64,000 bases of DNA from Marsupella aquatica (Eukaryota > Plantae > Marchantiophyta), in the NCBI GenBank assembly GCA_973895155.1, contig OZ316894.1, positions 10,757,874 to 10,821,873 on the forward strand, given 5' to 3'. Under the pieces are notes generated by a model, which was given only the letters and a program-made list of their open reading frames with translations, ran no database searches and had not been told where the DNA came from. A program made the position numbers and the translations under genes. This document shows positions 12,161 to 56,838 of the stretch, piece by piece; positions within the stretch are counted from its first letter, which is position 1; each line of letters begins with the position of its first letter.

Positions 12161-14178
12161 CGTAGTCTCGTAACAACCCCAATAGACCTCAACAGTTTTG
12201 GTAAGTATATACCACCCCGTCAATGAAAAAAAGGATTCAAAACAGGATCCCAAAAGCTATAGACCCAATATGGGGACGACGTGTCAAGTTTTCAACAACA
12301 AACTTGATGAACCGGGGAGTGAAAAAGACTAGTGAAAAAGACTCCTGGAGAGGCTGCTCTTTGGAAGGGACTTCACTTAGTCAGACCCCATTCTGTCCCA
12401 TTAGCCAGAATCTAATGGTCTTCCTTAAACCTAGGGAGATCTAGCTGTCAAAAAATTGCTCAAGAAAGTAGATAAGGACTAGGACTATTCTTAGCATCTC
12501 CTTAGTGACAATTCTGCAGCAAAGAGGAGAGATAGACACTACAATTTACTGTAGGAGTCTCATAATTTTGAGCAATCAGCGGATCACATTTTTGTGGAGG
12601 TCAGATTAATGGAAAGAGCCAACGAGGGGTTAACCTCGACAAAATCAAAAAGTCTCTTTAACGATCGTCCAGCTTGATTTAGCCAAAATTAGACATCAGT
12701 AAGGCAATTATATGGCAGTCAGTCATCATTGTTGTTGGGAAATGACCGTGCTGAATTGCTGATGAAATCCACTCCTCTCTCTTCTCATGATTGTGAGAAG
12801 AACAGTCGATGGCAGAAGGCAAAACGCGGAGCACAGTATTAACGGGGATTAAAAAGATATATACAAACAAGAGAGTTCTAAACGTGCTCAAACAAAAGCC
12901 AATACTCAAAGTCAGTCAGATGATGCCTGTGGCAGTGTGGCATGCGTGGTCCTCGTAGTAGAATCCTTCGATTTTCTCTCAATTTTCTATTGTCGTCGAG
13001 GCCCCACACTCATTAATATTCAAGAGGAGCGTCTTTTCATCATCGTGACAGACTGGAATGACCTGCGACATTGCAAATGTCGACTTTTCCCGCAGCCCAT
13101 TCATCTCGTAAGAAACACGTGCAAGATTGCGTAAAAATCATTGGGACGGCCAGATAACACATGTGGACAGACAAACACAAAGATTTGGAGACCATTCTCT
13201 TCTGGGGACTCCTGTTATTAGAATTTCTTCGATCTGGTTCTGATAATGGCGATTCAAGGGTAGAGAAAGCTCTCTCTCGTTGCACTCTTGTTAGTACTAC
13301 TCTTAGAGGTTGCCGTATGTCGATCTCGTGCTTCGGTCTGTCTCGCGTTTAGTGGCTCAGATGTTTGGCTCTGGAAGCCGGGAAGAATCATACAAAGTAT
13401 ATGGGGAGAACTCAACTACAGACAATCTTCAGGTAGTCCCTACTGAGAGCTGGATTCAGAAGTCAAAGCCAGAGTCTTTCTTCGAGTTTTGCAACACGAA
13501 AGGGAAACCCAGTCAAAGCCAGATTTAATGCAGTACGGTATCCAGGTACACTAATTGATATTAACAATCATACTATCTTTATGAATAGCGGCAGTCAGTC
13601 TTGTGGTAATAAACTTACTCTACAGTATGGCTGTCACTCAATTTACTCGAAGATGACTAGAAGTGAACATTTAGTTTCCGGTCAGCTCCCGAATGCAAAG
13701 GACAGAGACTGATAGAGTATTGGAAAAGCAACAGCCGGGCTTGCAGGATGCGACGGAAAGCAGTGAGACATTGTGAGGGAAATGAGTGGACAAACTATAA
13801 GTGCTGAGTGGGTCGTCCGACATGCTGGGTTCTTCTTGAGTTGATTGGAGTTTTACGTTGTCAGTAAAGTGAGGAGAGGATTCATTCCTACTGACTCCCC
13901 GCTTCTGTGCACATGACGCACCAAACTGGGATGGAAACGGAATTCTGTTGAGTGATATCTGTTTCGGTTGGGTTTTATGCTGAGTGACAGTGTTTGCTTC
14001 TTCATGCATATGACTGACCACGCTGGAATGGAAGCAGAGTCCTGTCGAGCTGGTCCGCGGAGGCGGGAAGAAGAAGGAGACCCTTTCGGAGGGACGATTT
14101 GAGCTCTTGAACGAGATGTGCTTGATTTTGGTTTTGTTCTGAGAGTTGTTTGGGTTTCCCGTCAGCTGTGTGTGAAAG

Positions 14179-15540
14179 ATGGGAAAAGACAGTGGTAATG
14201 GGGAAGAAGTGGAAGAGCAAGCTGCTGGTCGGTGGAGAAGATTGGGGGAGCTGGGAATGGAGGAGGGGCTTCGAGAAGCTGGGTTTTCCCAAGCCAGCAT
14301 CACTGCAATTCTCAGCCAGGTGCGCTCGTCTGGTGAGAGGGTCTCCCAACAATTTTGGGAAGGTGTAATTGCGGACAGGTTATCAGAAATCAAAGATGGT
14401 AGAGCAGTGTTGCTGGCTCTGCTCGGTCGTGACCGCTTCTCGTCTGCGACGGAACTCTGGCTGACTCAGAGAAGCATCGGTCATCTGGACTATAATGAGG
14501 CCATTGCTCTGTGTGTGAACTTGAGCTCCAACCCCAGCATCCGAGTGCTGGCCTTGGACGAGCAGACGGTGTTTGGTACCCTGGAGGGATGCTCTCTCTT
14601 GGCCAATGCGTTGTCAAATAATTCCGCACTCCAGTCTCTCTTCTTGAGCAAGGTTGACATGGGAAGTGGAGCTGCGAGATGCCTCATGGATGGATTGCAG
14701 GGCAGCAAGACCCTGGAGGACCTCTCGATTGGATACAACCCTCTGCTGGACGAGGGAATTGAGTCCGTGGCAGAGATGCTGAGCACCAACACGTCTCTCA
14801 AACGGTTATACATGTACGAGACTCACAGTGGCAGAGAGGGTGCCGAACACATGGCGTCAGCAATGGAGCGCAACTCCACTTTGGAGATTTTGTACTTCGG
14901 AGGGAATGCCATATCAAGTGACGGGATGAAGAGGCTGCTGGCTCCGCTTTCCCGGGGACATGGTGCGGATGGCCCCAAGAACACCACACTCAAAGAGCTG
15001 GAGCTCAGCAACATTGCGCGGGACAGCTACTGCGTTGAGGCCATGGCATGGATGATAAGGACCAACAACAGCTTGTCGAGTCTCAGTCTTGCCTCGACCA
15101 CGTTGCTCACGCAAGATTGGGTGGACCAAATATTTCCTGCGCTGAGAGAGAATGAAACTCTCAAGGAACTAGATCTCAGGTCTTGCCAAGGACTCACGAT
15201 AGAAGGTTGCTACGATGCTCTTATGGAGCTTGTACAATCCAGTGACACGGGATTGGAAGAACTCGAGCTGGCTGGAACTGGTTTAGAACCGACGTCTGCA
15301 CAAGTGGAGGAAGAGTTGAGGTTGAACAGCGAGTACCTTGGCAGGCAGAGGGGCCACGCTCATTTGAACTCCACTTCTGGCCGTCTTTATCTGGAATTCA
15401 TATCTGGTTGGCGCATACTAACCATCTCTGCTCTTACTCAAACTCAATTTCACTTTTCAGAAATCAATCATGGTGTCCTTTTTAAAAACAATTTGCCCCG
15501 CGGGTGGATCCTCCAGACACGGTTACTACCAAGGACATGA
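14179..15540 (+). CDS. RI-like leucine-rich-repeat protein (N-terminal part of a TORNADO1-like LRR-Roc-COR gene)
   Basis: 453-aa open ORF with ~28-aa RI-type repeats (LANALSNNSALQSLFL, VAEMLSTNTSLKRLYM, MASAMERNSTLEILYF, ALRENETLKELDL). It ends in 'STSGRLYL', resembling the strand before a Roc P-loop. True coding part probably ends at a donor after 15406. Confidence 0.75.
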   Translation: MGKDSGNGEEVEEQAAGRWRRLGELGMEEGLREAGFSQASITAILSQVRSSGERVSQQFWEGVIADRLSEIKDGRAVLLALLGRDRFSSATELWLTQRSIGHLDYNEAIALCVNLSSNPSIRVLALDEQTVFGTLEGCSLLANALSNNSALQSLFLSKVDMGSGAARCLMDGLQGSKTLEDLSIGYNPLLDEGIESVAEMLSTNTSLKRLYMYETHSGREGAEHMASAMERNSTLEILYFGGNAISSDGMKRLLAPLSRGHGADGPKNTTLKELELSNIARDSYCVEAMAWMIRTNNSLSSLSLASTTLLTQDWVDQIFPALRENETLKELDLRSCQGLTIEGCYDALMELVQSSDTGLEELELAGTGLEPTSAQVEEELRLNSEYLGRQRGHAHLNSTSGRLYLEFISGWRILTISALTQTQFHFSEINHGVLFKNNLPRGWILQTRLLPRT

Positions 15541-19216: not shown

Positions 19217-20224
19217 AGTTTTAGTGTAAAATGCTCTAAGGATTTTAGTTTCATAAAAGTTTGCATGCTTCAATTGTTTTTTTTGGATGCAATTGTTTTA
19301 TTTCAAAGGCACCACAGTAAGGCCTGTTCAAGCTCAGCGTCCTATCATAGATCTCTCACCATCAGGCTTGGCCCCTCAGAGGAGATCCATGTCCCACTTG
19401 TAGATTCAGTGAACTAAATGTAAAAAACCAGTATTGGTGGGAAGCTCTAAATTGTTGGCTTACTAATGAACTTGACAGTGAAATAACAACAGATTTGCTG
19501 CTGGTGCTCTGAATATAATGTGAAGTGATCGAACTGCCGGCAAGTGCTCTATTTGCAGAGCTGAAGATCACCCTTGACAACAAAGAAGTGTCACCGAATA
19601 ATATTACGTTGTCCATTGAAACGGTCAAACCCATTGCTCTACAATTTCATGTACCTTGTCCATTGAAACAGTCAAACTCATTGCTTTACCATTTTTGCAT
19701 GTCCTTCATTGCAAAAGTAGTCTTCTGGATTTCTGATGTCATTTATCGACTCTGATGTCAAAAATTGAGCATACACCTGCCTTCATTCTCTTACAACCAT
19801 TTGCACTACCTACTCTCAGTACATGGTTTCAAAACACGGCTGCATGCAAACATCAGAGCTAGTTACATGACTAGAGACTCCAATTCTCTATCCACGTCTG
19901 CAAGATGTAGGTACATATGTCAAATCATGGACTGGACCGTAAGGATATCTCTGAAGAACAGACTTTCATCTGCAGTGGAGCTATTGTTCTCAGCCTTCGC
20001 ATGTGCATCCATACCTTCAATTCCGGCTGGTACTGTCAAAGTCGCTGATCTGAAGATGACTATCTACCTCCAACTCTACACTTGAGGTGATGAAAAAGGT
20101 TGGACCACTCAATAAACCAAAGTTCTGCCCGGGATTCTGCCATGGAAGGTCTAATATGTGTAGTCAGAACGCTTGCAATTTGCTTGATCCTTGCTGGTTT
20201 CTATTGAAGGTTTCTTGAGACAGT

Positions 20225-23200
20225 TCAATCTTTTTCTCTCTCCCAGATGCAGAAGTCATCTCCTGAAAGGCCAACCTGAAAGCCAGGCGCTGCGACAACA
20301 AAATAAAATCGAGTGAATTTTCTTGAACGACTTCATGTGTAGAATTGAATGAGAGTACTCCTTGCTTCGCCAGTCATCATTAGTAAAGCTTGCACTCCTA
20401 AGAATTCTCCGAGAAGAATGGGTAAGAACATACCAGGTTGAAATCCTCGCAGGTCAAAGCTAGGTCCCAGCTTGACATAAATACCCCGAAATGACGGGGT
20501 ATTTAATTTTGATCCAATCATAGCTATGTAAAGGTCAGGGTCACCTTTGAGGATGCTTATTTGACTCACAGAATGTACATTCCACTGCTTCCTAATGGTA
20601 AGCAATGATTTGATGTGAGACTGTCCATAAATGACAACTTGGGTCAGAGTCTATCAGACGCCTTTCATTCAAGCCATCTAAACGAAAATATAATACCGCA
20701 GAAAGTTTTCACCTGAATTTTGAGAATCATCGATATCATATCAAATTCTGTTATACTACTCCCCTAAAACCATCTCAAAATTATGCTTAATTAAAGGATC
20801 ATTAACCCTTTACCTGAAGTGAAGGATCATTGAAGTCATCTGCAAAGATGCAGGGTGTGCCCGGATGCGTAAGGAGATAAACATATCTGCATTATTCCCA
20901 TCACTCAAATTCAGAGAAATATTTTCCCTTCTGTCACCACAATTTGGTAGAAGAACGTTCGATCTATTGTGCTCCTGCTTTGCAAAACATTCCTTGAGGA
21001 AATGAAGCTTACCCGAGAGCCCGTCGCCAAGCTGGGAACGGCCAAAGTTTGGGAATTGAACCAGTGCTATGGTTCTCCAAGAATGTAATAGCCTGGTTTC
21101 CAAGAAGACATCTGATTCTGAGATTGAGGGTTCCATGAAGCTGCCGATTGATAAGAAAAACCTACTTGCTTTGAAATCCTTTGACTACAGTAGGACAATA
21201 TATTGTAATCGACGATACTCAGTCAGTTGTTCTTCCCAGATGCCGCATTACCATTTCTGACCACCATCCAACTAGACCGGGGGGGTTACCATCTCTGTCC
21301 TTCAGACGCCAGTATTCTGTGTTCTCCACAGCGCTTTGAAGAATGCCCTGCACCCATCGTAAGCTCACTCAATCGTCAGACATTTTCAGGTGAATGCCTA
21401 ATAGCATGATGTAACCTGTCGCGTACCTGCACTGGGTTAAAGCTCTAGGAAGGTTACATCACTCCGGGGAATTCACAAAACATTCTTAGAACCATAGAGA
21501 CCAAATCAAACTTATGACACACCTTCGTGGTGTAGTCAAACACTGCAGTCGAGCGTCCAGACAAGTTAACCCAATCACAGAGCTGTTGTCGATGCTGGTC
21601 TGTTTTAATAGATAGGAAACACAATCCAAGGCTGTTAATGCACTTCTTAGCGACGAAGGACAAATATACAGCGAAGCGTCTCCAGTTAACAGAAGGATAA
21701 GGCCATCAATTACCATTATATTTACCAATTTAAAACTGAAGCTGGAGCTGCAGACGAGACAAGCGAAGCGGAGATGACAGGGTCAAACATCAGTCTAGCA
21801 ATAATAGAATGGAACAGCTCACCTTGATTGTACTCCAGCATAGAACCATTGTACCTGCCATTGAAAAAGGTGCAGGTCTCACAAAGTTACCAACATCGGT
21901 TGGGTGGGCGAAACTACAACTAAACTACAACACACGATTGCAACATCTGCTTTCCGTAATCCGGTATAGAATCTGATCCAGTACTAAAGCTGAGTGTGCG
22001 CCAAGGTCATACCTCATTGGATGCCAGACGTCCCCAATTGTGATGTCAGAAGCGGTTTCTTGAGCATACCTACCAAATCAGAGGGCAGAGTGCAGAACGG
22101 AGAAGTCTTTATCAACATTTGAACACTCTAAAATTGTTTACCTTTCACAGATATGAAGTTTTGTAAGGACAGTAGATTTTGAAGAGAACATGAATGGCCC
22201 TATTATGAACGGGAAAAAACTCATAAAACGACCCGGGAAACCAATTGGGGCATCATTTATTTATAAGTCAGGGTCGTAAGCCCTCGATTCAAGTTGTCAA
22301 TTGGTAATGCCAGAGTTTCAAGAGAGTGTCGAACATTTTTATTTTGTTGGGATCGTAGGACTTGCCAGCGTCAAAGCACCAGCCCTGCCAAAAAGAAGAT
22401 GGAGCAGTTGCCATCGTCGAAAATCAGTCCTTGAGATAGTAATTTCCGGATTCCAGAGAATTCAATGGCCAACTGGAAAGCAAAGACTGGTGGTGTTAAT
22501 TGCAAATCAGGATTGAAATGTACGAATTAAATCATTAACTCTCCCAAGGTTTGACAGTAAATTCCTCCTTCGGAATATTGCCTACATCGCCTACGATTGT
22601 GGGAGCCTCACATCAAAGCCGACGTCCTTTTTCAACCACAGGAGCCATCCTTTCACGTCACTCTGAAACACCGGATTGCTGTGATCGATGCTTGCAGTGC
22701 TTGGTGGTGGCGGGGGATCGCTGTCACTAAAGCCAGCATTGTGCCCATCGACTACAGCATCATCAACCCAGTCGCCCCAATCGAATTCCTGTCCAAACAC
22801 CCAGATATGATGGGACTTCAGCTCCCGTCTGGCTCATGTACATTAGAAACTCAGCGTTGTGCGAACTCCGATCACTCCGTAATTTATTTCGAAGTGCTGG
22901 GTTCTATCCAGTTGGTGGATTGATGCACTCACCGTAACTGAGTCATTACTGGACGAGACTGCATGCAGCCACTGCTAATCCTTTGGGTCCACATTAAAGC
23001 CATGACTTTTATTTAAATATTGTGAACAATTGAAGTACAATGGAAACAAGCACGTGCACTTTTGTTTCTTCTGTAAAGAATCGCAACAGAGGGCAAAGAA
23101 CTTTTAGCATCACCTGAATGATAACCTTTCATGAAAAAGCAGTGCAGCGAGACAAATAGTTTATGTCTCGTGGACTTTGAGAGTCCGCCAGTGGACTAGA

Positions 23201-23887
23201 TCGACCTTTGCAAGCTTATCATGCCGTAAGCTGCGCAGAACAGAGTGGCGGGTACCCAAACTAGAAGAAGGAAAACTAGAGAATGATGCACACCTCATCA
23301 AAGGGGCCCTCCAGATAATCGTTAAAGATTGTGCTCTGATGCTTCTGTTGACACCCCATGTACTGATGTAAAACGACGTCGTGAATCGCGTAGACTCCGT
23401 TTTCGTGCAAAACAGCTAAAACATCTTCAAGTTCTTCGACGGTCCCATATGCCGAATCTAGCGAGTAAAACTCCTCAGGCATAAAGCCTGCAGACGTGAT
23501 AATTATCAAAAGTATTCAGCGATGGCCGCAGTGCCCCGCCAATTCTTCTGTCCACGAGCACTACACGAGGAAACGACCATGCCGGAAGACAAATTGCTAG
23601 AGAAGGAGTGATATACCTTGCCCATCTGCGGCACGTGAAGCCGGAGGGAACAAGACATGCGTGAAGCCTGTGGATTTTAGAGCAGGCACCAAATCCTTCA
23701 GTCTCTGATAAAAAGTCTTTCCATCCACGACTTCATGGGAATCCCACCCAAATGCCTGGAACAAACAAACCGTGTTGGGAGTAAACTCTGCCAAGAATTC
23801 GGTATTCGATAAGGCTCTCGACACTTGCTTCGATAGCTGCCGTGAGAGCTGCCTCGACAGCGACCGGGGCAGTAGAATCTGTGCCAT
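20225..23887 (-). CDS. Alpha-amylase-like protein (GH13, plant AMY type), 12 exons, ~452 aa, predicted catalytically impaired
   Basis: Exons (minus) 23887-23617, 23487-23294, 22788-22612, 22384-22335, 22069-22013, 21854-21823, 21599-21523, 21347-21252, 21092-21013, 20886-20814, 20620-20434, 20289-20225; all GT-AG, 1359 nt, no internal stop. Amylase motifs LFQAFGWDS, SAYGTVEEL, IDHSNP, YNQDQHRQQLCDW, FDYTTKGILQ, GNPPGLVGWW, YLLTHPGTPCIF, DDFCIWE. Confidence 0.9.
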
Positions 23888-26029
23888 TCCGCCCTCCTTT
23901 CTAGTGCTCTTGTCGGCTGAACCAAGTCAAGCTCACAGTAAAAACTCACCGTCTTTTAAATGCAAACTGAAGGTATCTTGCCCACTCACCACCCACCGGC
24001 AATACTTAGCCACAAAAATGCATGCCACAATTCTCCATCATAGCAATGTGAACACACTCCACAGTAGGAGCAAAATCGGCTCATAGAGCTCTAGTGGTCC
24101 CGTAAGAATTCCAGCTGGCAACTTGGCGGAGCTTAATCATCCCTTCAGCGTTGCCAAAGAGAACTCTCCGGGCCTCATCTTCAAAAGAGAATCTCTGGCA
24201 TAGGGAATTACAGACGTCCTATGAATTCTCTGTAGGCTTGCTCATTCAAGAACCTGTTACGAGGAACAATAGCTTACACTTCTTCCCATCTCCAGCCGGA
24301 GTCAAGACATTTGCCTAAACAATCCAGCCGCTTGAGATCTGTCAGTCACAAGAGTCCAGGGTTTAGCCCGTAAGGTTTCAGAACGTACTCGATTACGGAT
24401 TACATCTGTGTTTCCATTTCCACGATGAAGGACATAATTTTTTGACAACAGCCTCTTCGGAACTAACTTCTCCCTCCAGAACGGACGGATTACTGAACTC
24501 ACAATTCACAAAGCCCATCTATGCGAACGCCATTCAACTACAGTAGGCAGTCAATTTCGATTCAACCCACAGCTTCCCTCCAAGACTACATTACCTTTAA
24601 CAACGAGTTACTGAACGTCATCTATGTTTGCACCTAGCTCCTTATCCATTTCAGCTCTGTACACGCAATTGGACTTCCAAACTACTAATCTCATGACGAA
24701 CAGTGAAGAAATGTGCTAGACTTTGTCTCAGCAAACTCCCTCAAGGCGTAACTATGTTGGCTGTATTAAACATTGTACACGGGCAATCATGGTTTCTATT
24801 CAGCTGTATTCAACACTGAAATCTTAACAAATTAGCATCATTCTTTCACACGAATGCCAGTCATGTTGCGACATACACAGCTCCACGTTGTTAAGTCAAT
24901 CTTGTGCAATTCCCGTTCACATTACATGTCAACGGATGGGACAGGACGTTGCAATTAGTCCGACAGATGACTCAAACTCCAAATTTATTTACCTCAGTCA
25001 TCGAAACGGAGCCCAATTAATCCATCCTGCACGCCGACGAGGTGGTCTATGACAGGAAATTCAATGCCACTGCTTATGACTCTCATCAACACATGCTTGA
25101 ATTGTTTAGTTGCAAATCTTGCTCGCTACCATACCCGTGGGATTATTAATTGCCGACGAGACAGAACGCATAATCCGACGGATGCATGAAGATCCGTGAC
25201 TCAGACGGCATCCACACCTTCGTTATCACATTCCATCGGCACTGATTGGACTCAACAAGACCTCAAGACGACCAAGCGAAACGACAACCGACAACCGACA
25301 ACCGCTAAGCAGAGAACCAAATTCTCGATGGCGAACGATCATCTGGCGGACCAGAACCAGACAGATTGCAAAAAGCTTTCACATAGCTCTGCAAAAAGCG
25401 TCTGCACAGTACTCTAGCCCCCGCAAGGCATCCGCCGCAACCGGAGCTGAGCTCGACGCTTTCCAAATCGAGCTGGGCTATGAAATGGAGTTGTCAAAAT
25501 TAATTGAAACTTGAAGACCTCGAGCTGCGTTTGATATTCAATTCGGTTCGTTTCTGACTGTGCGTTCTATTGCTGTGAGACGCAAACATGAAAGATCTAG
25601 TCTTCTATGTCGACAAACAGGAAACGGACTGTTTGTGGTCTTGCGAAGCGGAATAGCCCTGTCTGTACCTTTGTCTGTGTTCCAAATTTCTTCGTGCGCT
25701 TTGCAGATTATACTCTCGGAATCCGACACGCGATCGGGCCCATGACACCGCACATGGAAGACTCCACGTGTCGTCTGTAGATTGCTGTTGGTTCCGTTTT
25801 GCTCATTGGCCAGAAAACTATATTTTGTCTTGAAGGGAAATGAAGCATAACACTTTTAGTAAACTCTTACTACCAACTTTCTGGGCCCTGGCTTTGACCC
25901 TATGAGCACTTGGTTTTAGGGCCTACAGGCGGGTTCCATTTCATGACCCTCCTATGCGATTTACTTCGGAGCTCTACCAGGCTTTTCGCTCAATAGGTGT
26001 TAACCTTCATGGCTCCTTTGTAGGTTACT

Positions 26030-27714: not shown

Positions 27715-30700
27715 TGTTGGGTATTTACTCTTACGTCTAGGTTAGGTATGACGTGGTTGGTACAACAATGTGGGTTGGTACAACTACGTGGTTAGGTACA
27801 ACTACGTGATTAGGTACAACTATGTGGTTAGGTACAACTAAGTTGCACACTATATCATAAGAGGCATGTGTGTTTGGAGAGGTAGAACCAAGGCTCATTG
27901 TTATGGAGCCACTTGAGAGATAGGGAGAGCTTACACTGTGGAGACTCGGTATAGCCGACGGGCTTAGAGTTCAGTAAAGCTCTCTTGTGTGTTCCTGTGG
28001 ACGTAGCCTCAAGGAGGTGAACCACGTATTCCTTGTGTCGACTATTGTGCGTTGGATGGTTCATGGGCTTGCCGTTGCGATCATCGTTTATGCTCAACAA
28101 TTGGTATCAGAGCATGCTTGGGAGGTGACGTGTGTTCGTGACGGGATTTCTTGACGGTTTTTCCAGCGTTGAGTGTCGGTGGATTTCCCGGAGTTCCGTC
28201 GCATGGGACTTGGAGTTTATGGGCTCAACGGATAGATCGGGGCAAGAGCTTTCTAATGGTGTGAAGAAATCGCTGAACGGAGCTCGTGGTGCAGAGAGAT
28301 CTAAGTTTTCGTCGTTCTGGATTTTGTGAAGAAAGTTGGCAATTGACTCGGAGGGAGAAGCATCAAGTGTTTTTGACTCAACGGAGAGATTGAGGCAAGA
28401 CGATTGTTTTGAGTCCGGGATTGGCTCTTTGATGCAAAGAGGAAGGCTAAGCAAAATCAATTACCTTGTTGGACTTGGTGACGGCACCAAGTGCAATTGA
28501 TCAACATTCGTTGTTGACAAGGTACCATTTTTTCTCTTTGAAAAATTGATTCGAAATTGGCTATGGCAATTGAGAGAAATCTGTCATCTTTACCAATTTT
28601 CTCCCTCGTTCTTTCCTCATTTTGGGTGCTTCTTATATCGATCTTCACCGCCTCGGAGTCTAGTTTCCAAATTTGAAATCAGATCTTGATTTCGTCAAAA
28701 CCCGAGTGAGATATCTTGCGTTTGGTGTTGAGGGGTACATTCTGCCGTGTGTATTTTCTGCGCGCGCGACCAGATTTCGACGACGAAGGGTGGTAGGGGG
28801 TTTTGGGGGTTCGAGGACACGTGTCAGCCCCTCGATTGTTCTTCCAAAATTCCCACAGGGCCTGTAGAAGGGTTATAGAATATTCCAAAAAACCAGAGAG
28901 CTATTTTTTGACCGTCCGACAAAAATTTTGTCCGCCGAACGGTAACTTTTTTGGTTCTTTTTCGGCGAGGTCGTAGCCATTGAAGTTGGCAATGCGGCGC
29001 ACCAATCACATCACAATTCCGACAACGGGTTATACTTGGTATTTTGGTTATTCCCTGAGGTGGTCAAAACGGGGGAGTTTCCCAAGGTTTTACCCACCTC
29101 GACCAAAATTTGAAGAACTTTTCCGTCAAATTTTGATTTTGATTCGGTTTCAGTATTGGACTCCTAGCTTTGTGGGCTACGCGGCGGTGTTGAGTTTTGA
29201 GTTTTTTGAGAAGTTGTGAAAAACAACATTTTTTGTGATTTTCTCATATGAGTGATTCGGAGGAGTTTTTCAAAGACGTGGAACTTGAAGCACGAGGATC
29301 ACCCCGGCGGTTTCAGGGGCAGAGAGAGGAGCAGGAGGAAGAGCACGTGACACCGATACCATCACCGGTGCGGTGTGTGGTGGAGGAAGCAGTACTACTA
29401 CCGAAGCTCACGGTAGTGCCAAAGAAGAAGATGGGGACTTTCAAGCTTGGAGGACCCAAGTATGAAGTGACAAAGTATGATGGGCGCTCTGACTACTTGC
29501 TATGGGAGAAGCAAGTGAAGGGAGTGCTCTATGCGTCAGGGATGGGCCAACTGCTGAGCCCTCGTGAAGACGATGTTGATGAGAAACAATGAAACCGCAT
29601 GCAGGAGCAGGGAGTGTGGTGTGTTACACTCTATCTCATACCTCCCATCATCAAACAGTTGGGTGCACATAAGGATTGCATGTCCTTGTTTGCGGAATTG
29701 CAGAGCAAGTATCATCGCAAGGAGTTGTCGAACCGGCTCTACACTTCCTACAAACTGATGAGTTTCAGGATGAAAGAATCCGGTACGAAGTTGCAAGACC
29801 ATGTGGATGCTTTCAATGACATGGTCGTTGACTTGGAAAACCTTGGAGAGACTTTGAATGATGAGACGAAGGCTCTGCAGCTTCTTAGTTCATTGCCTCC
29901 ATCTTACCAGTCCCTATCACGAGTGTTGTTGCATCGTGATAGGGATACCATTTCATACAATGACGTGGTAAGTTCTCTGCTTAGTGATGATCTTCAATAG
30001 AAGATGCACATCACGTCACAGCCTTCATCATCTGGTGCTGCCCTCAATGTTAACCGTGGGAGGAGTATGCAGCGACCAACTGGGGACCGTAGAACCCAGT
30101 TTAGATCTAAATCCAGATCTAAGTCCAAGGGTAAATCCCCTCAGAGGAGGCAGGTGACATGTTGGAAGTGCAACCAAGTTGGACACTCCAAGCGAGACTG
30201 TAAGGGAAAGGCAGCGGAAACTTCATCGGCAAATGTGGCTAGGGCTGATGGAGAAGCTGATTTACTCAATGATGAGTATGTTTTATGAAGTCGGGGGTAT
30301 GCCCTGTGCACGTCATCTAGGAGAGCAGATGATGTGTGGATTATTGATTGTGCTTGCTCTTTTCATATTTGTTACATTCCTGAGTTTTTCAGTTCTTACT
30401 CTGTTTCAAACGGTTTAGTTCTGATGGAAAATGATCACTCCTGTCAAATTGAGGGAATTGGGTCTGTGAAGATTCAAATGTTTGATGGCGCTGTGCGCAC
30501 AGTGTCCGGAGTCAGGTATGTACCTGGCATGCGTAAGAATCTGATTTCACTCGGTGTGTTGGATTCAAATGGTCATCAATGGAGCATTATTGATGGTGAA
30601 CTTCAAGTCAGGTCGGGAGAGACAATGATTTTGAAGGGGAGTAGACAAAAGAATTTGTATGTGTTACAGGGCAATACTGTATGTGGAGAGGCCAATATAA

Positions 30701-33700
30701 CCAAGTCTCACGAGGAGATGACTCAACTGTGGCATTCACGGCTAGGCCACATGAGTGAGAAGGGTTTGGCTATCTTACGGAAGAATGGACTCATTTCTGA
30801 TTTGCAATCTTGCAAATTAGAGTTCTGTGAGCATTACATTCTTGGAAAGCAGCATCGTCGTGCTTTTGGTGTTGGAACTCATCGTTCCAAAGCGGTTCTT
30901 GAGTACATACATAGTGACGTGTGGGGATCATCCCTGACTCCCTCACACTCTGGAAAGTTGTACTATGTATCATTTATTGATGATTACTCAAGATTTATGT
31001 GGATTTATTTCATGACGCACAAGTCTGATGTCTTGTCCATTTTTAAGAAGTGGAAGGCCCAGGTGGAGAATCAGATTGGAAACACGATCAAGTGTTTGGA
31101 TACAAGGGTGAAGAGTCTGAGGTCAGACAACGGCGGGGAGTACACTTCAATGGAATTTGAAGAGTACTGTTCAGAACAGGGGATAACTCGCCATCTCACC
31201 ATAGTTTATACTCCGCAGCAGAATGGTGTCATTGAGAGGCTCAATCGGACATTGTTGGAGCGGTTACGGAGTATATTGAGCCAATCAGGTTTACCACAAG
31301 AATTTTGGGCAGAAGCTGTCAATACCGCAGCTTATTTGGTAAATATTTCTCCTTCTAGTGCTATCAATTTCAAAACGTCGTTTGAGATGCGCTATAAGCG
31401 GCAAGCAGACTATCATGGCTTGGTAGTTTTTGGAAGTGATGCATATGCTCTCACACCGAAGCAGAATAGGACCAAGTTGGATCCTACCTCCAAGAAATGT
31501 GTTTTTCTTGGGTACCAGAGTGGTGTGAAAGCCTATAGGCTATGGGATCCTATTGCCTGTAAGCTCGTTGTCAGTAGGGATGTTTCCTTCAATGAATCCA
31601 GATTATTGAAGGAGGGGGAGAATACTCAGGTCTCCCGTACTGACAAAGGAAAATCTCATATCTTGGATCTCGTTGAGGGGGAGATTGGTTATGAGGTGCA
31701 TGACCGGAGAGAAGGAGTTGCTCCAATTATGGAGCAGGTTCTTGTGCTAGAGGAACCAGAGGAGTTTGTTGATGCTGGTGAGCAGCAAGTGGATGCTGTT
31801 GAGCTTCAAATTGTACCAGCACATGCAGATCAACCGGAGTCATCGGCTAGAAGAGCATCTGGTCGCACTGTACGCGCTCCACCAAGGTATGGACAGTGGG
31901 TTGATTCATCTCAACTGCAAGAGGATGATTTTGCAGCTGATGATGAGGGTGATGCGTTAATTTTGGAAGAAGGGGAACCTTCTTCATTTCATGAGGCAAG
32001 TGCTTCAAAGGAGAAGCAGAAGTGGACTGCAGCAATGCAAACGGAGATGCAGTCACTACAGGACAACAAAACTTGGGAGCTTGTTAAGCTGCCTAAGGGT
32101 CAGCAAGTGGTGGACAGCAAGTGGATTTACAAGCTGAAGGATAATCCCATAGGAGGTGGATCGAAGGTCTACAAGGCTAGGTTGGTAGCAAAGGGATTCA
32201 CACAAGAGAAAGGTGTGGATTACAATGAGGTCTTCTCACCAGTTGCTAAGTACTCTACAATACGACTATTGTGTGTACTTGTTGTAATGTTTGGTCTGCT
32301 GCTAGATCAGATGGATGTTGTCACAACTTTCCTCTATGGCATATTGGAAGAGGTGATCTTCATGAGACAACCGCTAGGTTTTGTGAAGAGAGGACAGGAG
32401 GAATTGGTTTGCAGATTGCTGAAATCCTTGTATGGGTTGAAGCAGTCACCAAGACAGTGGAATAAGCGGTTTGACGATTGGATTCGGTCACAAGGTTTTC
32501 ATAGAAGTGTATTTGACCCTTGTGTGTATTTGAAACCGGTGAAGAATGTTGTCTTTGGGTTCATTGTTTTAGTACTTTATGTGGATGACATGCTAATTGC
32601 AGCCAAGGATAGGTCTGAGATTGTTAAGCTCAAGACACTGCTTAGTGCAGAGTTTAAGATGAAGGACTTAGGGCCAGCTAAGAGGATTTTGGGTATGGAG
32701 ATCACTAGGGACTTGGAGGCTGGCAAGCTATGGTTGACGTAGAGCAGTTATGCGAGGAAGGTAATTGCAAGGTTCAACATGGGGAATAGCAAGCCAGTAA
32801 GTACCCCGTTGGCTCCACACTTCAAGTTATCATCAGCGTTCTGTCCTACGAATGACACAGAGAAGGGGTTGATGTCAAAGGTTCCGTATGACAAGGCAGT
32901 GAGGAGTCTCATGTATTTGATGACTTGCACTAGACCTGATCTTGCCATGGCTATGGGCAAGGTGAGCAGGTACATGTCGAATCCAGGGAAGGTACACTGG
33001 GAAGCAGTGAAGTGGATTTTCAGGTACTTGAAGGGTACCGTGGATCATGGTCTTTTATTTGATGCGACTGCAAAGAATGCTAGATCATTGATTGGCTATG
33101 TAGATTCTGACTATGGACAAGATTTGGACCGAAGGAGATCAACAACAGGATACGTGTTCACACTTGGCGGTGGATGCATAAGTTGGAGGTCTACTTTGCA
33201 GAAGTGTATTGCTCAGTCTACTACAGAAGCGGAGTATGTTGCAGCTGCGAAAGCAGCAAAGGAAGCGATTTGGTGGATAGACTTATCACTGAAATGGGAT
33301 TGCCACAGGGGAATGTGAAGCTCCATTGTGATAGTCAAAGTCCGCTCCACCTTGCTGTGAACCAAGTGATGGACAGCAGAGTGAAGCACATTGACGTCAG
33401 GTACCATTTTATCAGGCAGGCTGTGTCTGATAATTTGTTTGAGCTAGTCAAGATTGATGGTAAACTCAACCCGGCTGACGCATTTACCAAAGTGATTCCT
33501 TTGGAGAGTTTCTCTAGACATCGTGACGTATTGCAGGTTTTGCAATTGCATCACAAGTAGAGTTTTCTTAACATTCATTTAATTACTGATATATGCTCTT
33601 CCTCATTCCTATGTATTAGGCTACGGCTTAGTTCTGGTTTGCTCTAGTTAGAGAGGGAAACCGGTTTGGTTTTTGTCCAGAACTTCCCGCTGAGGGATCA

Positions 33701-35060: not shown

Positions 35061-38000
35061 TTTTCTTCTTTTTTTAAATATCGTTTATTCCGCGTGAACC
35101 CCACGGATGGGGGGACCCAGCAGGCCCAAAGGCAAAAGAGGCCATAAAAGGCATAAAAAAGTAGTTACAGTGAATTCAGGAATCCAAAGAGAACTACCAG
35201 CTGCAAAACGGACTCCCGTGTGGGACAAGAGAGTAAAAAGCCAAGTGTATGCAAGCAGGTCTAAATCATCAGAATCATGACAACAGATCCTAATACACCT
35301 AAGTCAGAGAGTAGGGTCCTAAAACGGTATCTATCAGAATGATACCAGCCTAACTACTCTACATCGCATAATTCTATTGCGCTTAGGCTCCAACAGGACC
35401 CTGGCACCAATCAACCTGGCAAGTTTGCAAGCAGAGCTTGAAGCAGCAGCTACAGTCGAGAGATGGTCAAGAACCTCAGAATGGACAAGCACTTGATCAA
35501 AGACTCTTCTCTTTGATAGATCAAAAGTCTGGCCGTTTCGTGCAAGCCAAATGGTCCAAAGCACCTGATACAAAACAAAGAAATGGAGGATATCTATAGT
35601 TGACCTCCTATCAGAACTCAATATCAGTTCTACCAAGTCCAAGGTACGATGAAAAAGTTGACCTGCTAACCATCCATGAGCCTCAGCCCAGCAGCCTTGT
35701 GCATGCCGACAGAAAGAAAATATATGAGGAATAGTCTCTAGCACATCAGGGCATAGAATACAAAATCCTGAAGACTTCCCAATCTTTCGCGCTTTGGCAC
35801 CAGAGGAGAGTCCCTGTGCAAGGATCCTCCAAAGAAACACCTTAGCCCAGGTGACAGGTCTGAAGTCCACACGGTTTTCCAGACCACCTCCCACTTAGAC
35901 ACCGGATAGCACTTCCCCCAGATTCGATTGAGTCTCTCAAAATCAGACCCTTTTGGTCTAAGCATCTCATATATCCTCTGATTTTGCAGCCCAAATTGTT
36001 TGATCCCCGTCTCACGATCCAGCCATCTCCACATCCCTGCACCAGACTCTGCTCCATCTCCAATGATAACCAGATCTTGAAGAACACAAAAGAAAAGTAA
36101 GCATAAGGTCAAACCAGCAGACTTAGTGAGACCCCGTAGTCGTTGAATCCGCTCTTCAGTGATTGTCCAGTTATTCCTCACACATGACCAGGAATCCCCA
36201 ATCTTCCTGATCCCCAGGCGACCAAAAGCACGTGTGGTCTCAAGGATGCTCTGCTCCGGCAGATCGTAGAAATCTCTCATACAACGTAAGGTATCCTCAA
36301 TACTCCAACGGCCAGGAATGTACCCCCTATCAGGACAGAAGATGAGGTTCTCCCGGATCATCTCCCAGGTCTTCCATAACTGCCCAGTATATACGAGCCT
36401 TCCAAAGGTACGAGGTGTACAGAGCAATAGTTTATCTATCATCGAGTAGAAATTCCTCCGGACCGTTTTATAATTCCTCCATCTGGTCAGTCGAAGATTT
36501 TCTGCAAAAAGCTGAGCCCATTCAGTCTTAGGGTAATCTAGAGCACCTGTAAACCATTTGCAAAGGAGAGCATCAGAATGGCTCTGGAAATCCTTCAGGC
36601 CAAGACCACCTTCAAGCTTAGGTCGAGCAAGCTTGTCCCAGGCCACCAGCGGAATTCATTTCCCACCTAAACGATTTGATCCCCAGAGAAAAACCCGGTT
36701 GAGAAGAGTAAGTTTCTTAGTCAAAATGTGGGGAGAACGTAGGATCATCATGTGATAGATGGGGATAGCCTGAAGGACATGCTTCACCAGCAATAAACGT
36801 CCAGTGAAAGAAAGAAAACAAGTGGACCACAAGGAGAGACTTGCTCCAATGCGGTCCAGACAGAAACCATGAAGCTGAGATTCCGATAGGTCAATCCCAA
36901 AAGGGGCCCCCAGGTATCGCTGCACCTCCCCAGGGCCGCTAACTTTGCAGCCAGTATTCCTCAACCAAGCAGGGATCTCCTCCATCGCAATTGGAATAAT
37001 AATTGACTTCTTAAGGTTGAGCTTAGTCCCTGTGGCACACTCATAGCAATTGATTGCTCCTCTAGTCTGATTGAAAGCCTCTTCAGTAGCAGGAATGAAT
37101 AAACCTAAATCATCAGCAAAAAATCGATCAAAAATATTCAGAGAAGATGAAACTTGAATCCCCTGAAGCCTGTCGGCAGCGATTTGAGCATGGCAGTAAT
37201 CCATAAAAGGTTGTGTTGATAGGGCAAAGAGTAAAGGCGAGAGGGGGCAACCTTGTCTGACCCCCCTCCCCATATGAATATCCGCTGTCCACAAGCCATT
37301 AACCAAAACCTTAGAGCAAGAATTACTCAACAATGCTTTAACCAGAAAAATAAAATGAGAGCCAAGGCCTAGTAGATGCATTGTTTCCCAGATATAGGAA
37401 TGGTCAACGCGGTCGAAAGCCTTCTCAAAATCCAGCAGCAGAAAGAGTGCCGGCTGCAATGTAAAGTTTAGCCAGTCATGCATCAGCCAAGCCAGGGAGA
37501 TGTTTTCTAAAATCTGTCTACCAGGAATAAAACCAGTCACTTGAGGACTAATCATCCTGGGTAGCAGCACCTTAAGTCGAAGCGCTAGTAGCTTAGCAAT
37601 TAGCTAATAGGTAATGGTTAGCATGGTCAGAGGTCTCCAATCCCTCAGGTAGCGATTATCCATTTTCTTGGGTATGAAGCGGATAACACCATCTCGGATA
37701 CCATAGGAAATGTGGCCGGTTCTCCAAAAGTCACAGATCATAGAAAAGAGGTCCTCCTTCATAAAATCCCAACAGGATCTCAACACCTCAGCCGTTATCC
37801 CATCAATTCTTGGAGCTTTATCTCCAGGCAGCAGCAACAGGGTGTCGTGTAGCTCCTTGATAGTCGGGAGCTCTTCCAATTTTTGAATCTCAGGCGCAGA
37901 TAGAGTTTCTACATAGACGTCTACGTGCCTCCAGTCGCTCCAACCGCTCTCCAACATTCAGATCTGGAGTTGAATATAAAACCTAGCAGAAACGTTCAAC

Positions 38001-38644
38001 TTCTTGAACCAAAGCCTTTTCATCTCGAATCTCTTCACCGTCATCATCAATTAGGTACTCCATGTGGTCTCTTTGTCGTTTTGCCTTTACCATTGAGAAG
38101 TAAAACTTAGAGGGCTCCTCCCCTTGGCCCAGCCAACTAACCCTAGCAGTCAGCGCTTGTGATGGGCATCATCCAGCTCCATATCACGAACACATTGGTC
38201 AGTAAATTCAAATTCTTGTACATTGTCAGAGGAAAACTCATCCAAGATCAGGATCTTTAATAACCTGAGCTTATTTTTCATCAATGTCAACTCCTCCTCA
38301 CGAGGCATGGGTGAGGATTGGATCGCCATGTAGCATCGACGGAGACGTTGGTAGGCCTTGGCAAATCTTAAATGAGGATCCACAGAGCTTTCTTCATCGC
38401 CTCTCCAGGCTTCAGCCAACATTTCTAGATTCCCTGAGCCTCTGAGTATAGCAGGATTCGCTTTAAAGTAAGTAGATCTTTTGACATTTGAGTTGGTCAA
38501 GAGTTGAGGATTTAAGCAAAAGGGAAACAGCACAGGATCGTGGTCAGATAGCGCTGAGGAGCCATCATGTTGTAGCTCAAGTACCTCCTCCATCCACTGG
38601 CCCTTTTCACTGAGATAGAAACGATCAAGTCGTGATTGAACAAG
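35061..38644 (-). mobile_element. 5'-truncated L1-type LINE (ORF2: end of endonuclease, RT, zf-RVT), defective
   Basis: QSRLDRF and SDHDPV (APE end); KAPRIDG, WRPLTML, LDFEKAFDRVDH, RQGCPLSP, FADD, RYLG, GGLG; C-terminal CxxC..E.IPHIF..C. AATAAA plus A-rich tail at the low-coordinate end; TSD CCTTACTTTT at 35051-35060 and 38645-38654. Several stops and frameshifts. Confidence 0.93.
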
Positions 38645-39074
38645 CCTTACTTTTGGGTGAGATGAATGTCAAAAGGGGCTTGCGTCACCAGGTGTTGGTC
38701 TAGAGACCTGTCCCTTCCGATTGACTTGCTCTACCACTCAGCTTGGGGGCAGCTGATAACCACAGAGATTTGCACCTAGTATATTACTTTTGATACAAGT
38801 GTCAACACAGGCAGGGAACGAGCAGCTAACCCTTGGTTTGGGCTACTCAATTCTAATTTGCATTGATTAGCCTTGCTCTTAACCCTCATCATCAATTAAA
38901 CCCCCACCCCGAAGTGCTTTAGACATTGTAATGCTACTATACTCGAGGGAGATTTAGAAAAGAATTGAAATTAAAGCTATGTTAACCTCTAGTGAAAGAC
39001 TCTAATGCTCTTCCAGGAAAGTTCCTAAGTCTTTCCTTTGAACCAATAAAATGACTATGTTTTGTCGCACATTT

Positions 39075-41120: not shown

Positions 41121-41680
41121 TGAGTAAGGTCGGCTGCAGGGTACACCTCAAGCTGCACTAGAGGAGTCAACGACTGCAATGACACGGGAAATTCTGTGAA
41201 ATTGTTGAAAGTGGAGGAGGATCCGTCAGAAATTGATCACGAACGATTACCACTCTGCCTGGAAGTATTTGGTGGGAACATTGTCCTTTCTTCAAGGTTA
41301 CTCTCAGGAGTTTTGTTGAGATCTGCTTTCTGGACTCTCATTCTCCAGGTTGCTACTGAAGATCTTTCGAGTGGACTAGGACACCTCCTACATCGATTGG
41401 AGTAATTCTAAGATCTTGTCGAAGCTGGAATCGTTGGGATGTCGGCCGTCGAAAGAAGAGGAAGGCATTCTGGCGAGAAATTTTATTAGGTTGGAAGATT
41501 GTGCATCTTCCAAGTTTGGATCAGGAGCTTGTCGAGATCGGTTGATGTCGGGGGAGTTGTGACGTTTATTGTAGATTGACTTGATCGGTGGAGCAGTGAT
41601 TGTATTCATTGAACAGGTTTAGGTAGAGGTTAGGGCGGGGTTGTCGGCTTGTTGTTGACAGCAGCAAGGCCGAGGAAGCG

Positions 41681-42124
41681 ATGTTGTTGAGTGTCCTGAT
41701 CGCCACTCGATCGGGCACTGTCCTGTTAGAGCGGTACCATGGGCTTCCGACGGACGAGCGGCTACAGTGGCGGACCTTTCTTCTGAAGCTCACGGCGGAC
41801 AATCTCAAAAACGCTCGCGACGACGAGCAATTCGTGGCGACTCACAAGGCCGTCTTCGTGGTGTACGCAGCCCTCGGTGAGGTTGCGATCTTCACAGTCG
41901 GCAAGGATGAGTACGACGAGCTGGCGCTGGTTGAGGTCTTAAACGCTATTACTTCTTCGGTTCGAGACGTTTGCAAGAGAGCTCCCAGCGAGCGCTTGTT
42001 TCTGGAGAAATATGGGAAACTGTCGCTGTGCCTGGACGAGATTGTTGTGCAGGGCAGGCTGGAGCAGACGGACAAGGATCGTGTTAGGCGGTTAACGAGG
42101 TTGAAACCTCTACCCGAGTCTTGA
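41681..42124 (+). CDS. LOLITA: LOLITA/TSPOON, longin (sigma-adaptin-like) small subunit of the TPLATE/TSET complex, 147 aa, single coding exon
   Basis: Closely matches my recollection of Arabidopsis LOLITA (ERLxWRxFLxKLxADNLK, VGKDEYDELAL, ERxFLxKYG, LCLDEIV, TDKDR, RLKP) with the same length. Confidence 0.88.
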   Translation: MLLSVLIATRSGTVLLERYHGLPTDERLQWRTFLLKLTADNLKNARDDEQFVATHKAVFVVYAALGEVAIFTVGKDEYDELALVEVLNAITSSVRDVCKRAPSERLFLEKYGKLSLCLDEIVVQGRLEQTDKDRVRRLTRLKPLPES

Positions 42125-46039: not shown

Positions 46040-48793
<2,754 letters not shown>

Positions 48794-55700: not shown

Positions 55701-56838
55701 CGTGGAAAACATCTCTCACTCCAATTTCCACCAGGCGCCGCGATATATGCCTCCCCAATGTCTGTGAATTTTGGCTCGGTAAGTGATATTTTGCAATGTC
55801 AGACAATCTCTCCGCATGCATCTTAGCAATGCGGTCCGTCGGAGCATGTTGTTTTGAATCTGCAAGCAACAGCACGAGAGAAATGAAACGGAAAAATTAA
55901 TCGTCAAAGCGGGACCAACACCAACTGCAGTAACGAGATAGAATTTGATCAACAAAAACGCGAACAGTGTACTCATCGTACATAGTCTAAAAGGAATTCT
56001 CATTATCATTGTGTTTTTCACGTTCATGGATCATATCATTTACAAGACTTGATTTGGCAGGATGATGTTCCTTCAATTGCCCCACCACCAGCGATGCCAG
56101 GATTGACCTATATATGAAAACTCTCCAGTTGCATAAAAGTCTCACCTCAAATGAGAGCAAGTGAACATTCCAAACAAAATCGAAATATAGTGCACACTAC
56201 TTCCCCCTCCCCATCGTCTGAACGAACTCAACTTATTCTGTGTATTCTGTGTATTCTGTCTTCTTCTTCTCACTATCATATGATAGATTAATCATCCATT
56301 AGCTCCGTTTCAACTTAAGTTTTCAACGAGAAAATAAAAGACGCTACAGTAATCAGACCTGAATCCAATATTTGATGTGTTCAAGACGAATACCAGCAGA
56401 AGCTGGCGGACTGGTGCGTGATTTCTGTTCTTTTAATTTATTTGAGGGCAAAAGAGCAGAAGCCGGAGTATTGAACGGTGACTTCTTTTTAGAAGTCATG
56501 TTTGGTGACTTCTTTTTAGAAGTCAGGTTTTTGATGTGTTCAACAGGAATCGCATCAGGTGCTGGAGGACTGATGAATGAAAACTGGCTTTTAAATTTAT
56601 CTGAGGGCAACAGAGCAGAAGGTGGAGTATTAAGCGATTTCTTTCTCTGAGATTTTCGACGAGGAGACGACAAAGAAGGAGGAGAACCGCGAGACTGGAC
56701 TGGGGAACGAGAACCGCCAAAACTTTGTGATGGACGACGGTTCTCGGAGGATGAGGATTTTTCATAAGCGGAGTGCGGCCAAAGGGTGTCTGGTTGTAAT
56801 GGTTCTGTACCGCTCGTCGATGGAGATGAGTCCACCAT
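49745..56838 (-). CDS. PDC: Pyruvate decarboxylase (ThDP-dependent); core ~582 aa from ATG 55821, or ~776 aa with two additional 5' exons
   Basis: Core exons (minus) 55859-55366, 54072-53909, 53323-52762, 52493-52405, 51997-51880, 50745-50557, 49915-49745. Motifs [84 protein letters not shown]. Putative extra exons 56838-56359 and 56107-56044 are less certain than the core. Confidence 0.93.
51150..51400 (-). mobile_element. tRNA-derived SINE-like insertion in a PDC intron
   Basis: Minus strand has an A-box-like TGGCTTTGGTCAGCTGG followed by 'AGAGGTCCCAGGTTCAATCCT' (tRNA T-arm/B-box). No full cloverleaf; boundaries approximate. Confidence 0.5.

Follow-up and report, generated by a model that had tools for sequence, protein, structure and literature searches.

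What keeps an alpha-amylase gene intact once most of its catalytic residues have been replaced? The question is raised by a gene at 20225-23887 on the minus strand of a 64,000-nucleotide stretch of DNA from the liverwort Marsupella aquatica (contig OZ316894.1 of assembly GCA_973895155.1, positions 10,757,874 to 10,821,873; hereafter the window). The original prediction, made from the letters alone, described an alpha-amylase homologue with a dismantled active site and proposed a regulatory role in starch turnover. We conclude that the gene belongs to a selected and apparently undescribed alpha-amylase subfamily and is not a local pseudogene, because the altered proteins form one clade with invariant residues of its own, constraint is distributed by domain, a second haplotype has a low ratio of nonsynonymous to synonymous polymorphism (pN/pS), and its listed indels are all intronic. 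An intact, selected and probably non-catalytic alpha-amylase derivative, as first proposed, is thus strongly supported; the role in starch regulation is still unsupported.

Spliced by coordinates, the 12 exons (Table 1) give an open frame of 452 amino acids that ends in a TGA stop at 20227-20225, with a GT donor and an AG acceptor at all 11 introns. When longer proteins were searched with exon 1, one of 297 candidates matched, a 451-residue protein of the leafy liverwort Calypogeia fissa. The spliced product matches this protein over its full length, with 92% identity over 398 tree columns. The cluster of the C. fissa protein includes another copy, encoded on a separate contig, and both C. fissa copies are intact. 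The frame-consistent, stop-free exons of the original prediction were borne out by the splicing and by the annotated C. fissa proteins, and in this alignment the exon model agrees with an independent annotation. The exon 4 donor at 22334 is weak (AT/GTTCGA), and an alternative donor at 22361 keeps the frame and would remove nine residues. We favour the long form because the annotated C. fissa proteins carry those nine residues, and rejected the shorter exon. The 207-residue longer N-terminus of the second C. fissa protein (P0002) is likely an annotation artefact: only a 24-residue piece of it matches, 1.8 kb upstream and at 58%. The five public sequencing runs over the locus behave as DNA, with introns covered and no splice joints, and are uninformative on expression either way; one of them, X1, is nearly identical to the window and may be the source of its DNA. 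Within intron 1, the stretch 23541-23610 draws many high-depth contigs with loose ends and is likely a small repeated element.

Which residues of the active site remain? Barley AMY1 numbering was read by eye off an alignment of the C. fissa orthologue to 2qpu. The gene product keeps D180 (Asp219), W207, H290 (His326) and the W278/W279 pair. It replaces E205 with Asp244, D291 with Ser327, R178 with Cys217, H93 with Gln132, N92 with His131 and Y52 with Phe92. The altered codons that had been predicted in regions I to IV read as described and fall on N92/H93, R178, D180, E205 and D291; the fifth change, Y52 to Phe, had been missed. In region I, HMMER can also put the His on H93 by opening a one-residue gap in the 2qpu alignment. 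Both the algal relatives and the register without a gap speak instead for His at N92 and Gln or Arg at H93. In barley AMY1, E205Q and D291N reportedly abolish activity; N92 and D149 are calcium ligands, and Y52 and H93 belong to the lining of subsite -1. Of the features of a canonical alpha-amylase (EC 3.2.1.1), the nucleophile Asp is present, and the acid/base Glu, the transition-state Asp, the region II Arg and the region I His are absent. For the functions of the Asp-Glu-Asp triad we follow PMC13163881 and PMC5347038; Table S3 of PMC6426938 lists R178, E205, H290 and D291 among the residues that touch the substrate and are conserved across the six plant subfamilies. Protonation of the leaving group would lack its Glu, and the transition state the Asp and Arg that stabilise it, so that the nucleophile, though retained, would not complete double displacement at a useful rate. 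With acid/base, transition-state and supporting residues replaced, the gene product is likely unable to hydrolyse starch.

Are these changes private to the liverwort? Of 3792 candidates, 253 matched the C. fissa protein at E 1e-60 or better, and the best 120 of these were considered. After C. fissa itself, the best matches were from Klebsormidium nitens (437 bits), Spirogloea muscicola (429 bits) and Closterium (355 bits), and the top canonical amylase scored 331 bits. Among the 121 proteins then compared, six had altered motifs, 113 had the canonical triad, one was truncated and one, from Castilleja, was otherwise degenerate; the last two were left out of the canonical set of 113. An unfiltered phmmer search of cluster representatives, in which 148 new proteins were screened among the best 150 of 1971 matches, added a Mesotaenium endlicherianum model, which ends before region IV, and another Closterium piece. 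The five other rows that it flagged were three alignment gaps, one protein with Glu at the nucleophile and one (P0178) with unrelated changes. A profile search (best 120 of 310 matches, 6891 candidates) gave no further member, all 26 new proteins having the triad.

The same five positions (E205, D291, R178, H93 and Y52), all close to invariant in the 113 canonical relatives, are altered in Klebsormidium, Spirogloea, Mesotaenium (its model being truncated before D291) and Closterium. We compared 17 clade rows: the window, two C. fissa, one Klebsormidium, three Spirogloea, one Mesotaenium and nine Closterium, with the fragments P0172 and P0278 left out; many are near-copies, and together they represent five independent lineages. 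D180, E205, D291, R178 and H93 are each invariant in 113/113 canonical relatives, and hence the active-site differences are not chance. At E205 the clade has Asp in 17/17 rows, versus Glu in 113/113 canonical proteins. D291 is Ser in 13 rows, Thr in three and uncovered in one; D180 is Asp in all 17; Y52 is Phe in all 17; H93 is Arg in 16, the window allele having Gln; and R178 varies between Cys, Ser and Phe. Close orthologues are therefore not all canonical: with the window uncounted, Asp occupies E205 in 16/16 relatives from the five lineages, and Ser or Thr occupies D291 in the 15/15 that cover it. The original prediction underestimated the age of the altered site, which is shared with streptophyte algae and is no bryophyte novelty. 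Alongside its three clade copies, Spirogloea keeps a canonical amylase. The Klebsormidium protein (GAQ81605.1) is simply labelled alpha-amylase in its annotation, and so is hidden in databases.

Two further proteins have damaged triads. P0053, from Castilleja foliolosa, has Ser in place of the nucleophile and Asp in place of the acid/base Glu and keeps the third Asp; it lies on a lengthened branch among canonical angiosperm enzymes, and by this placement it is an independent, recent degeneration. P0178, which is transcriptome-derived, carries Asn at both the nucleophile and the third position, with Asp as its acid/base residue; it lies on a long branch outside the clade and is possibly a second dead amylase lineage. 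Both were rejected as clade members, since their triad changes are different and they fall outside the clade in the tree.

Did the altered proteins lose catalysis together? In a 55-row maximum-likelihood tree, 9/9 altered rows formed one group with support of 100/100. In a 29-row tree built without the active-site, domain B and insertion columns, 7/7 still grouped, at 100/99. Long-branch attraction or the trait columns are not the cause of this grouping, so far as the column removal and the shared insertions can test it. Eleven residues seldom seen in canonical proteins, R250, Y283 and W340 being examples, are also invariant throughout the clade, which has an insertion in domain C as well. Of the 105 columns that are at least 90% conserved in the 113 canonical proteins, 69 are retained in the clade. 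The canonical residue is missing from all 17 rows at 5/7 catalytic or -1 subsite positions (a set picked from the residue roles given above for barley AMY1) versus 5/98 other columns (Fisher P 5e-5), some row having a gap at two of the five catalytic positions and at three of the five others. By these counts, the loss of catalytic residues is targeted. We conclude that catalysis was most likely lost once, at a single origin of the altered clade.

In unconstrained trees the clade falls outside all sampled amylase groups. Its union with the AtAMY1-type streptophyte group was not rejected by the approximately unbiased test (p-AU 0.38), and union with the AtAMY2/AtAMY3-type group was rejected (p-AU 0.008); these group labels were assigned from names and Pfam, in a tree without a grass AMY1/AMY2 row. 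Unlike the species tree, the unconstrained trees place the liverwort (Calypogeia) outside all algal members. Perhaps the gene was acquired from an alga by horizontal transfer? The misplacement of Calypogeia would fit such an event, which we nevertheless think improbable, the species-tree arrangement not being rejected (p-AU 0.143). For the same reason, the simplest history is one of vertical inheritance followed by losses. The dead-site subfamily is probably older than land plants.

The fold appears to have survived. An AlphaFold2 model of the C. fissa orthologue has a mean predicted local distance difference test score (pLDDT) of 85.9, low at residues 1-36 and most of 137-177, and its best Foldseek matches are rice and barley alpha-amylases, with template modelling (TM) scores of 0.89-0.90 by target. 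The C. fissa protein matches eight plant alpha-amylase chains (barley, rice) at E 3e-89 to 7e-82, the next family following at 1e-12, and both Pfam PF00128 and PF07821 lie above their gathering cut-offs. In the model, an intact fold that agrees with the original assignment, the protein is a GH13 member of GH13_6 by descent and fold, with a (beta/alpha)8 barrel, a domain B insert and a beta-sheet domain C.

Constraint on this fold is uneven. The ratio of divergence in domain B to that in the rear barrel (residues 190-383) is 2.0-8.1 in 4/4 clade pairs and 0.8-1.6 in 5/5 canonical pairs, some of the algal gene models being rough. The rear barrel differs by 28% between Klebsormidium and Spirogloea, against 32% between the canonical proteins of Marchantia and Mesostigma. 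Between the window and C. fissa, 7/194 residues differ in the rear barrel, 3/65 in domain C and 17/58 in domain B. Judged from these comparisons, domain B is relaxed and the second half of the barrel is constrained.

Over positions 19500-24800 of the window, sequencing runs X2 and X4 hold two haplotypes a few percent apart and X5 only the diverged one, a pattern that fits an allopolyploid or a mixed sample. Haplotype changes were counted in the stretches 20400-20653 and 20803-21863, which are fully listed for X5. The second haplotype has five nonsynonymous changes in 423 sites, two of them resting on one low-depth contig, five synonymous changes in 122 and 27 non-coding changes in 770, for a pN/pS of 0.29 (P 0.05 versus synonymous; P 0.012 versus synonymous and non-coding, 32/892). 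All 11 listed gene-body indels are intronic, with a chance of about 0.006 if independent, or 0.015 if three that lie within six bases of each other are counted once; nine further indels lie outside the listed set. No frame-breaking variant occurs among the haplotype variants listed.

Which surfaces might such a protein use? On the aglycone side, W207 and a basic position 183 (K/R183) are kept almost throughout the clade; in domain C the equivalents of K375 and D398 are retained. In the barley alignment the clade insertion stands immediately before the strand that bears the K375 equivalent, and may extend a binding face there. Four algal N-termini were examined. They measure 108-164 residues, of which the first 50 include 0-2 acidic ones, as in the plastid-type amylases of Marchantia and Sphagnum, and in composition they resemble plastid transit peptides. 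In the liverwort the extension is shorter, at about 40 residues, of which 7/40 differ in C. fissa, and carries five tandem kinase-type motifs. Five such motifs were reached in one of 100000 shuffles, a figure inflated by the four-residue repeat. Ten other anchored N-termini examined have 0 or 1 such motif each, and the array is absent from the algal members. The last motif also fits the full SnRK1/CDPK motif as quoted in PMC4992866. The liverwort N-terminus may be phospho-regulated and the protein cytosolic; a short transit peptide is a possible alternative for this extension.

Taken with the fold and its constraint, these features make it reasonably probable that the protein is a non-hydrolytic glucan- or partner-binding protein that modulates glucan turnover. 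A duplication from an AtAMY1-type lineage before the Klebsormidium/land plant split would have been followed by a single loss of catalysis. Domain B, a contributor to the calcium sites and to the cleft on its glycone side, would then have drifted. Constraint would have persisted in domain C and in the half of the barrel from beta4 to beta8, where the new R250, Y283, W340 and domain C insertion became fixed. The constrained surfaces may bind an alpha-glucan or malto-oligosaccharide, an active starch enzyme, or both, and binding would position or tune glucan turnover in the manner of ISA2 and BAM9. Action would be in the plastid in the algae, given their long transit-peptide-like N-termini, and in the liverwort, with its short basophilic motif array, possibly in the cytosol under phospho-regulation.

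Several observations weigh against this reading. The nucleophile Asp, an acid/base carboxylate, H290 and W207 are invariant in the clade, as a remodelled catalytic site would predict. Perhaps the kept nucleophile, the Asp acid, H290 and the new Arg at H93 carry out slow hydrolysis, transglycosylation or chemistry on activated or phosphorylated glucosides? The replacements at E205, Y52 and H93 are fixed and not scattered, with D180 kept throughout and H290 in 16/16 covered rows. PMC5347038 reports activity for BmaN1, a Bacillus megaterium GH13 protein with an aberrant triad that, like the clade, has no third Asp. However, the bacterial enzyme has a shifted nucleophile, keeps its acid/base Glu and has His at the third position; the clade has neither this Glu nor this His, and its Glu, third Asp, Arg and His are all replaced. 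Moreover, R178 drifts, the window allele has Gln at H93, domain B is relaxed, and the kept Asp may be structural, since 69 of the 105 conserved columns were kept anyway. We regard a remodelled enzyme as unlikely.

The second point concerns surface-binding site 1 (SBS1), made up in barley of Q227, V230, D234, W278 and W279 (Table S3, PMC6426938). The Trp pair is lost in Closterium members and occurs in just 23/113 active relatives, and so looks ancestral rather than specially kept. The original prediction gave weight to the GWW motif: its Trp pair does align to W278/W279, but the weight is still unsupported, the gene product having Q, W and W with Cys and Asn at the other two positions, so that two of the three other SBS1 residues differ. 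Could the protein be non-catalytic and yet work outside starch metabolism, as a scaffold or small-ligand sensor for a protein or soluble sugar unrelated to granule turnover? Eroded glycone-side residues and domain B, an SBS1 that is not clade-wide, and a short, motif-bearing liverwort N-terminus in place of the long algal extensions would all suit such a role. The transit-peptide-like composition of the algal N-termini tells against it, as does retention of W207, K/R183 and the K375 and D398 equivalents, and we hold this role, too, to have little likelihood.

The remaining points concern the liverwort. The Calypogeia stem is long (0.73-1.04, versus 0.2-0.4 for most algal tips), and the liverwort protein may therefore no longer do what the algal proteins do. 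Exons 1-2 alone, which are partly listed, have six nonsynonymous and two synonymous changes; when these are added, pN/pS is 0.46 and the difference between nonsynonymous and synonymous changes is not significant (P 0.15). No clade member from Marchantia, Riccia, mosses, lycophytes or seed plants appears among the matches listed, and the function of the clade would thus be dispensable in most land plants sampled. Among the listed matches of the word-filtered or clustered searches, which are not a genome survey and do not visibly sample hornworts, Chara or other leafy liverworts, only canonical enzymes came from Marchantia, Riccia, Sphagnum, Diphasiastrum, Selaginella, Mesostigma and seed plants. 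The long stem and the exon 1-2 excess, with extra changes at N92, F181 and beta8, would be expected of a protein that is functional in algae and decaying in the liverwort lineage, heading for the loss seen in other land plants. Decay is very unlikely in our judgement, given how little the window and C. fissa differ in the rear barrel and domain C compared with domain B, the two intact C. fissa copies and the unbroken frame among listed variants. As these counts fall, the evidence against the reading is real but local, with the front half loose and the rear half and domain C tight.

The binding reading can be drawn out much further: a plastid glucan sensor or scaffold from streptophyte algae with a purpose-built site of Asp-Asp-His and two new arginines, a seventh green-plant subfamily and first dead plant alpha-amylase, lost in most land plants and surviving in leafy liverworts as a cytosolic protein controlled by SnRK1/CDPK through the five-site array. 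The two arginines would suit an anionic ligand such as a phosphorylated glucan. As a whole, this extended version is doubtful.

Table 1. Positions in the window of the exons and motifs of the amylase-like gene and of other features (codons in brackets; barley AMY1 numbering for one-letter residues)
Feature	Positions	Strand	Content
Exon 1	23617-23887	-	Start codon, in agreement with C. fissa P0001; 40-residue N-terminal extension; barrel strands beta1-beta2
Motif array	23795-23872	-	Five tandem hydrophobic-x-R/K-x-x-S motifs (S11, S15, S19, S23, S27); 5/5 kept in C. fissa
Exon 2	23294-23487	-	Y52-to-Phe site (23485-23483), region I, start of domain B
His131-Gln132	23363-23368	-	In place of N92-H93 (CAT-CAG, 23368-23363); whole DVVLHQ 23380-23363; register ambiguous by one residue
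Exon 3	22612-22788	-	Remainder of domain B (diverged), helix alpha3
Exon 4	22335-22384	-	Region II; Cys217 for R178 (TGC, 22378-22376); Asp219, nucleophile D180 (GAC, 22372-22370)
Exon 5	22013-22069	-	Region III; Asp244 for acid/base E205 (GAC, 22032-22030); W207 equivalent retained
Exon 6	21823-21854	-	
Exon 7	21523-21599	-	SBS1 helix; clade-specific Tyr283 for F248 (21534-21532)
Exon 8	21252-21347	-	Trp314-Trp315, equivalent to W278/W279 (21266-21261)
Exon 9	21013-21092	-	Region IV; His326, equivalent to H290; Ser327 for D291 (AGC, 21068-21066); clade-specific Trp340 (21029-21027)
Exon 10	20814-20886	-	Strand beta8
Exon 11	20434-20620	-	Barrel end and domain C; clade-specific insertion about 20515-20483
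Exon 12	20225-20289	-	End of domain C and stop codon
Leucine-rich-repeat frame	14176-15537	+	
Copia-type long terminal repeat retrotransposon pol	29593-33557	+	In pieces
Reverse transcriptase of the long interspersed nuclear element type	35337-38668	-	In pieces
Clathrin adaptor small chain family	41627-42121	+	Uninterrupted 165-codon frame, covering nearly the whole profile
Malate dehydrogenase-like exon	47222-47743	+	
Thiamine-pyrophosphate enzyme exons	52738-55896	-	Presumably pyruvate decarboxylase-like

The neighbouring genes in the window gave no functional clue to the amylase-like gene, and we saw no link between it and the leucine-rich-repeat, malate dehydrogenase-like or thiamine-pyrophosphate enzyme frames.

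Does a known system already cover this clade? Plant alpha-amylases have been divided into six subfamilies, AMY1-AMY6, whose active site is conserved (Ju et al. 2019, PMC6426938). The main text of that paper has no mention of 'inactive' or 'charophy', and the portion of its supplement examined none of Klebsormidium. With the plant GH13_6 enzymes (barley AMY1/AMY2, rice AmyI-1) the clade shares the A/B/C domain order and the D180, H290, W207 and W278/W279 positions. It differs in the replacement of E205, D291, R178, H93 and Y52, in its separate clade, its relaxed domain B and its domain C insertion, and the R178, E205 and D291 conserved across AMY1-AMY6 (Table S3, PMC6426938) are gone from it. 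Nearer in kind is ISA2, the non-catalytic isoamylase subunit of GH13_11. According to PMC12510319, its catalytic residues, including the nucleophile, are replaced in every member from algae to land plants; it is present across Chloroplastida, partners ISA1 and is proposed to act through glucan-binding sites. The present clade is likewise a GH13 paralogue with catalytic residues replaced from algae to a land plant, but ISA2 belongs to a debranching subfamily, and the clade keeps its nucleophile Asp. Like BAM9 and BAM4, the GH14 pseudo-beta-amylases that regulate starch breakdown, it is a probably dead amylase paralogue, although of an unrelated family and mechanism. PMC12046210 has BAM9 binding AMY3, activating it about threefold and confined to vascular plants, unlike the present clade of algae and a liverwort.

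Among the literature searched, which was without most subscription journals, no paper dealt with a catalytically dead plant or algal alpha-amylase, and the amylase passages of PMC8256493 do not mention this clade. The subfamily is apparently undescribed, and the original statement that no plant example had been described holds for alpha-amylases in this literature. It does not extend to GH13 at large: because ISA2 is known (PMC12510319), a non-catalytic plant GH13 protein is not a new kind. As in other starch-pathway pseudoenzymes, catalytic residues are replaced throughout an old, conserved clade. If a clade with a fixed loss of catalysis has persisted from Klebsormidium to a liverwort, an alpha-amylase would join the few such proteins recognised so far (ISA2, BAM4/9). 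The clade would indicate an early level of control over starch that was later abandoned by most land plants, and would provide a natural example of a GH13 scaffold that binds without cutting.

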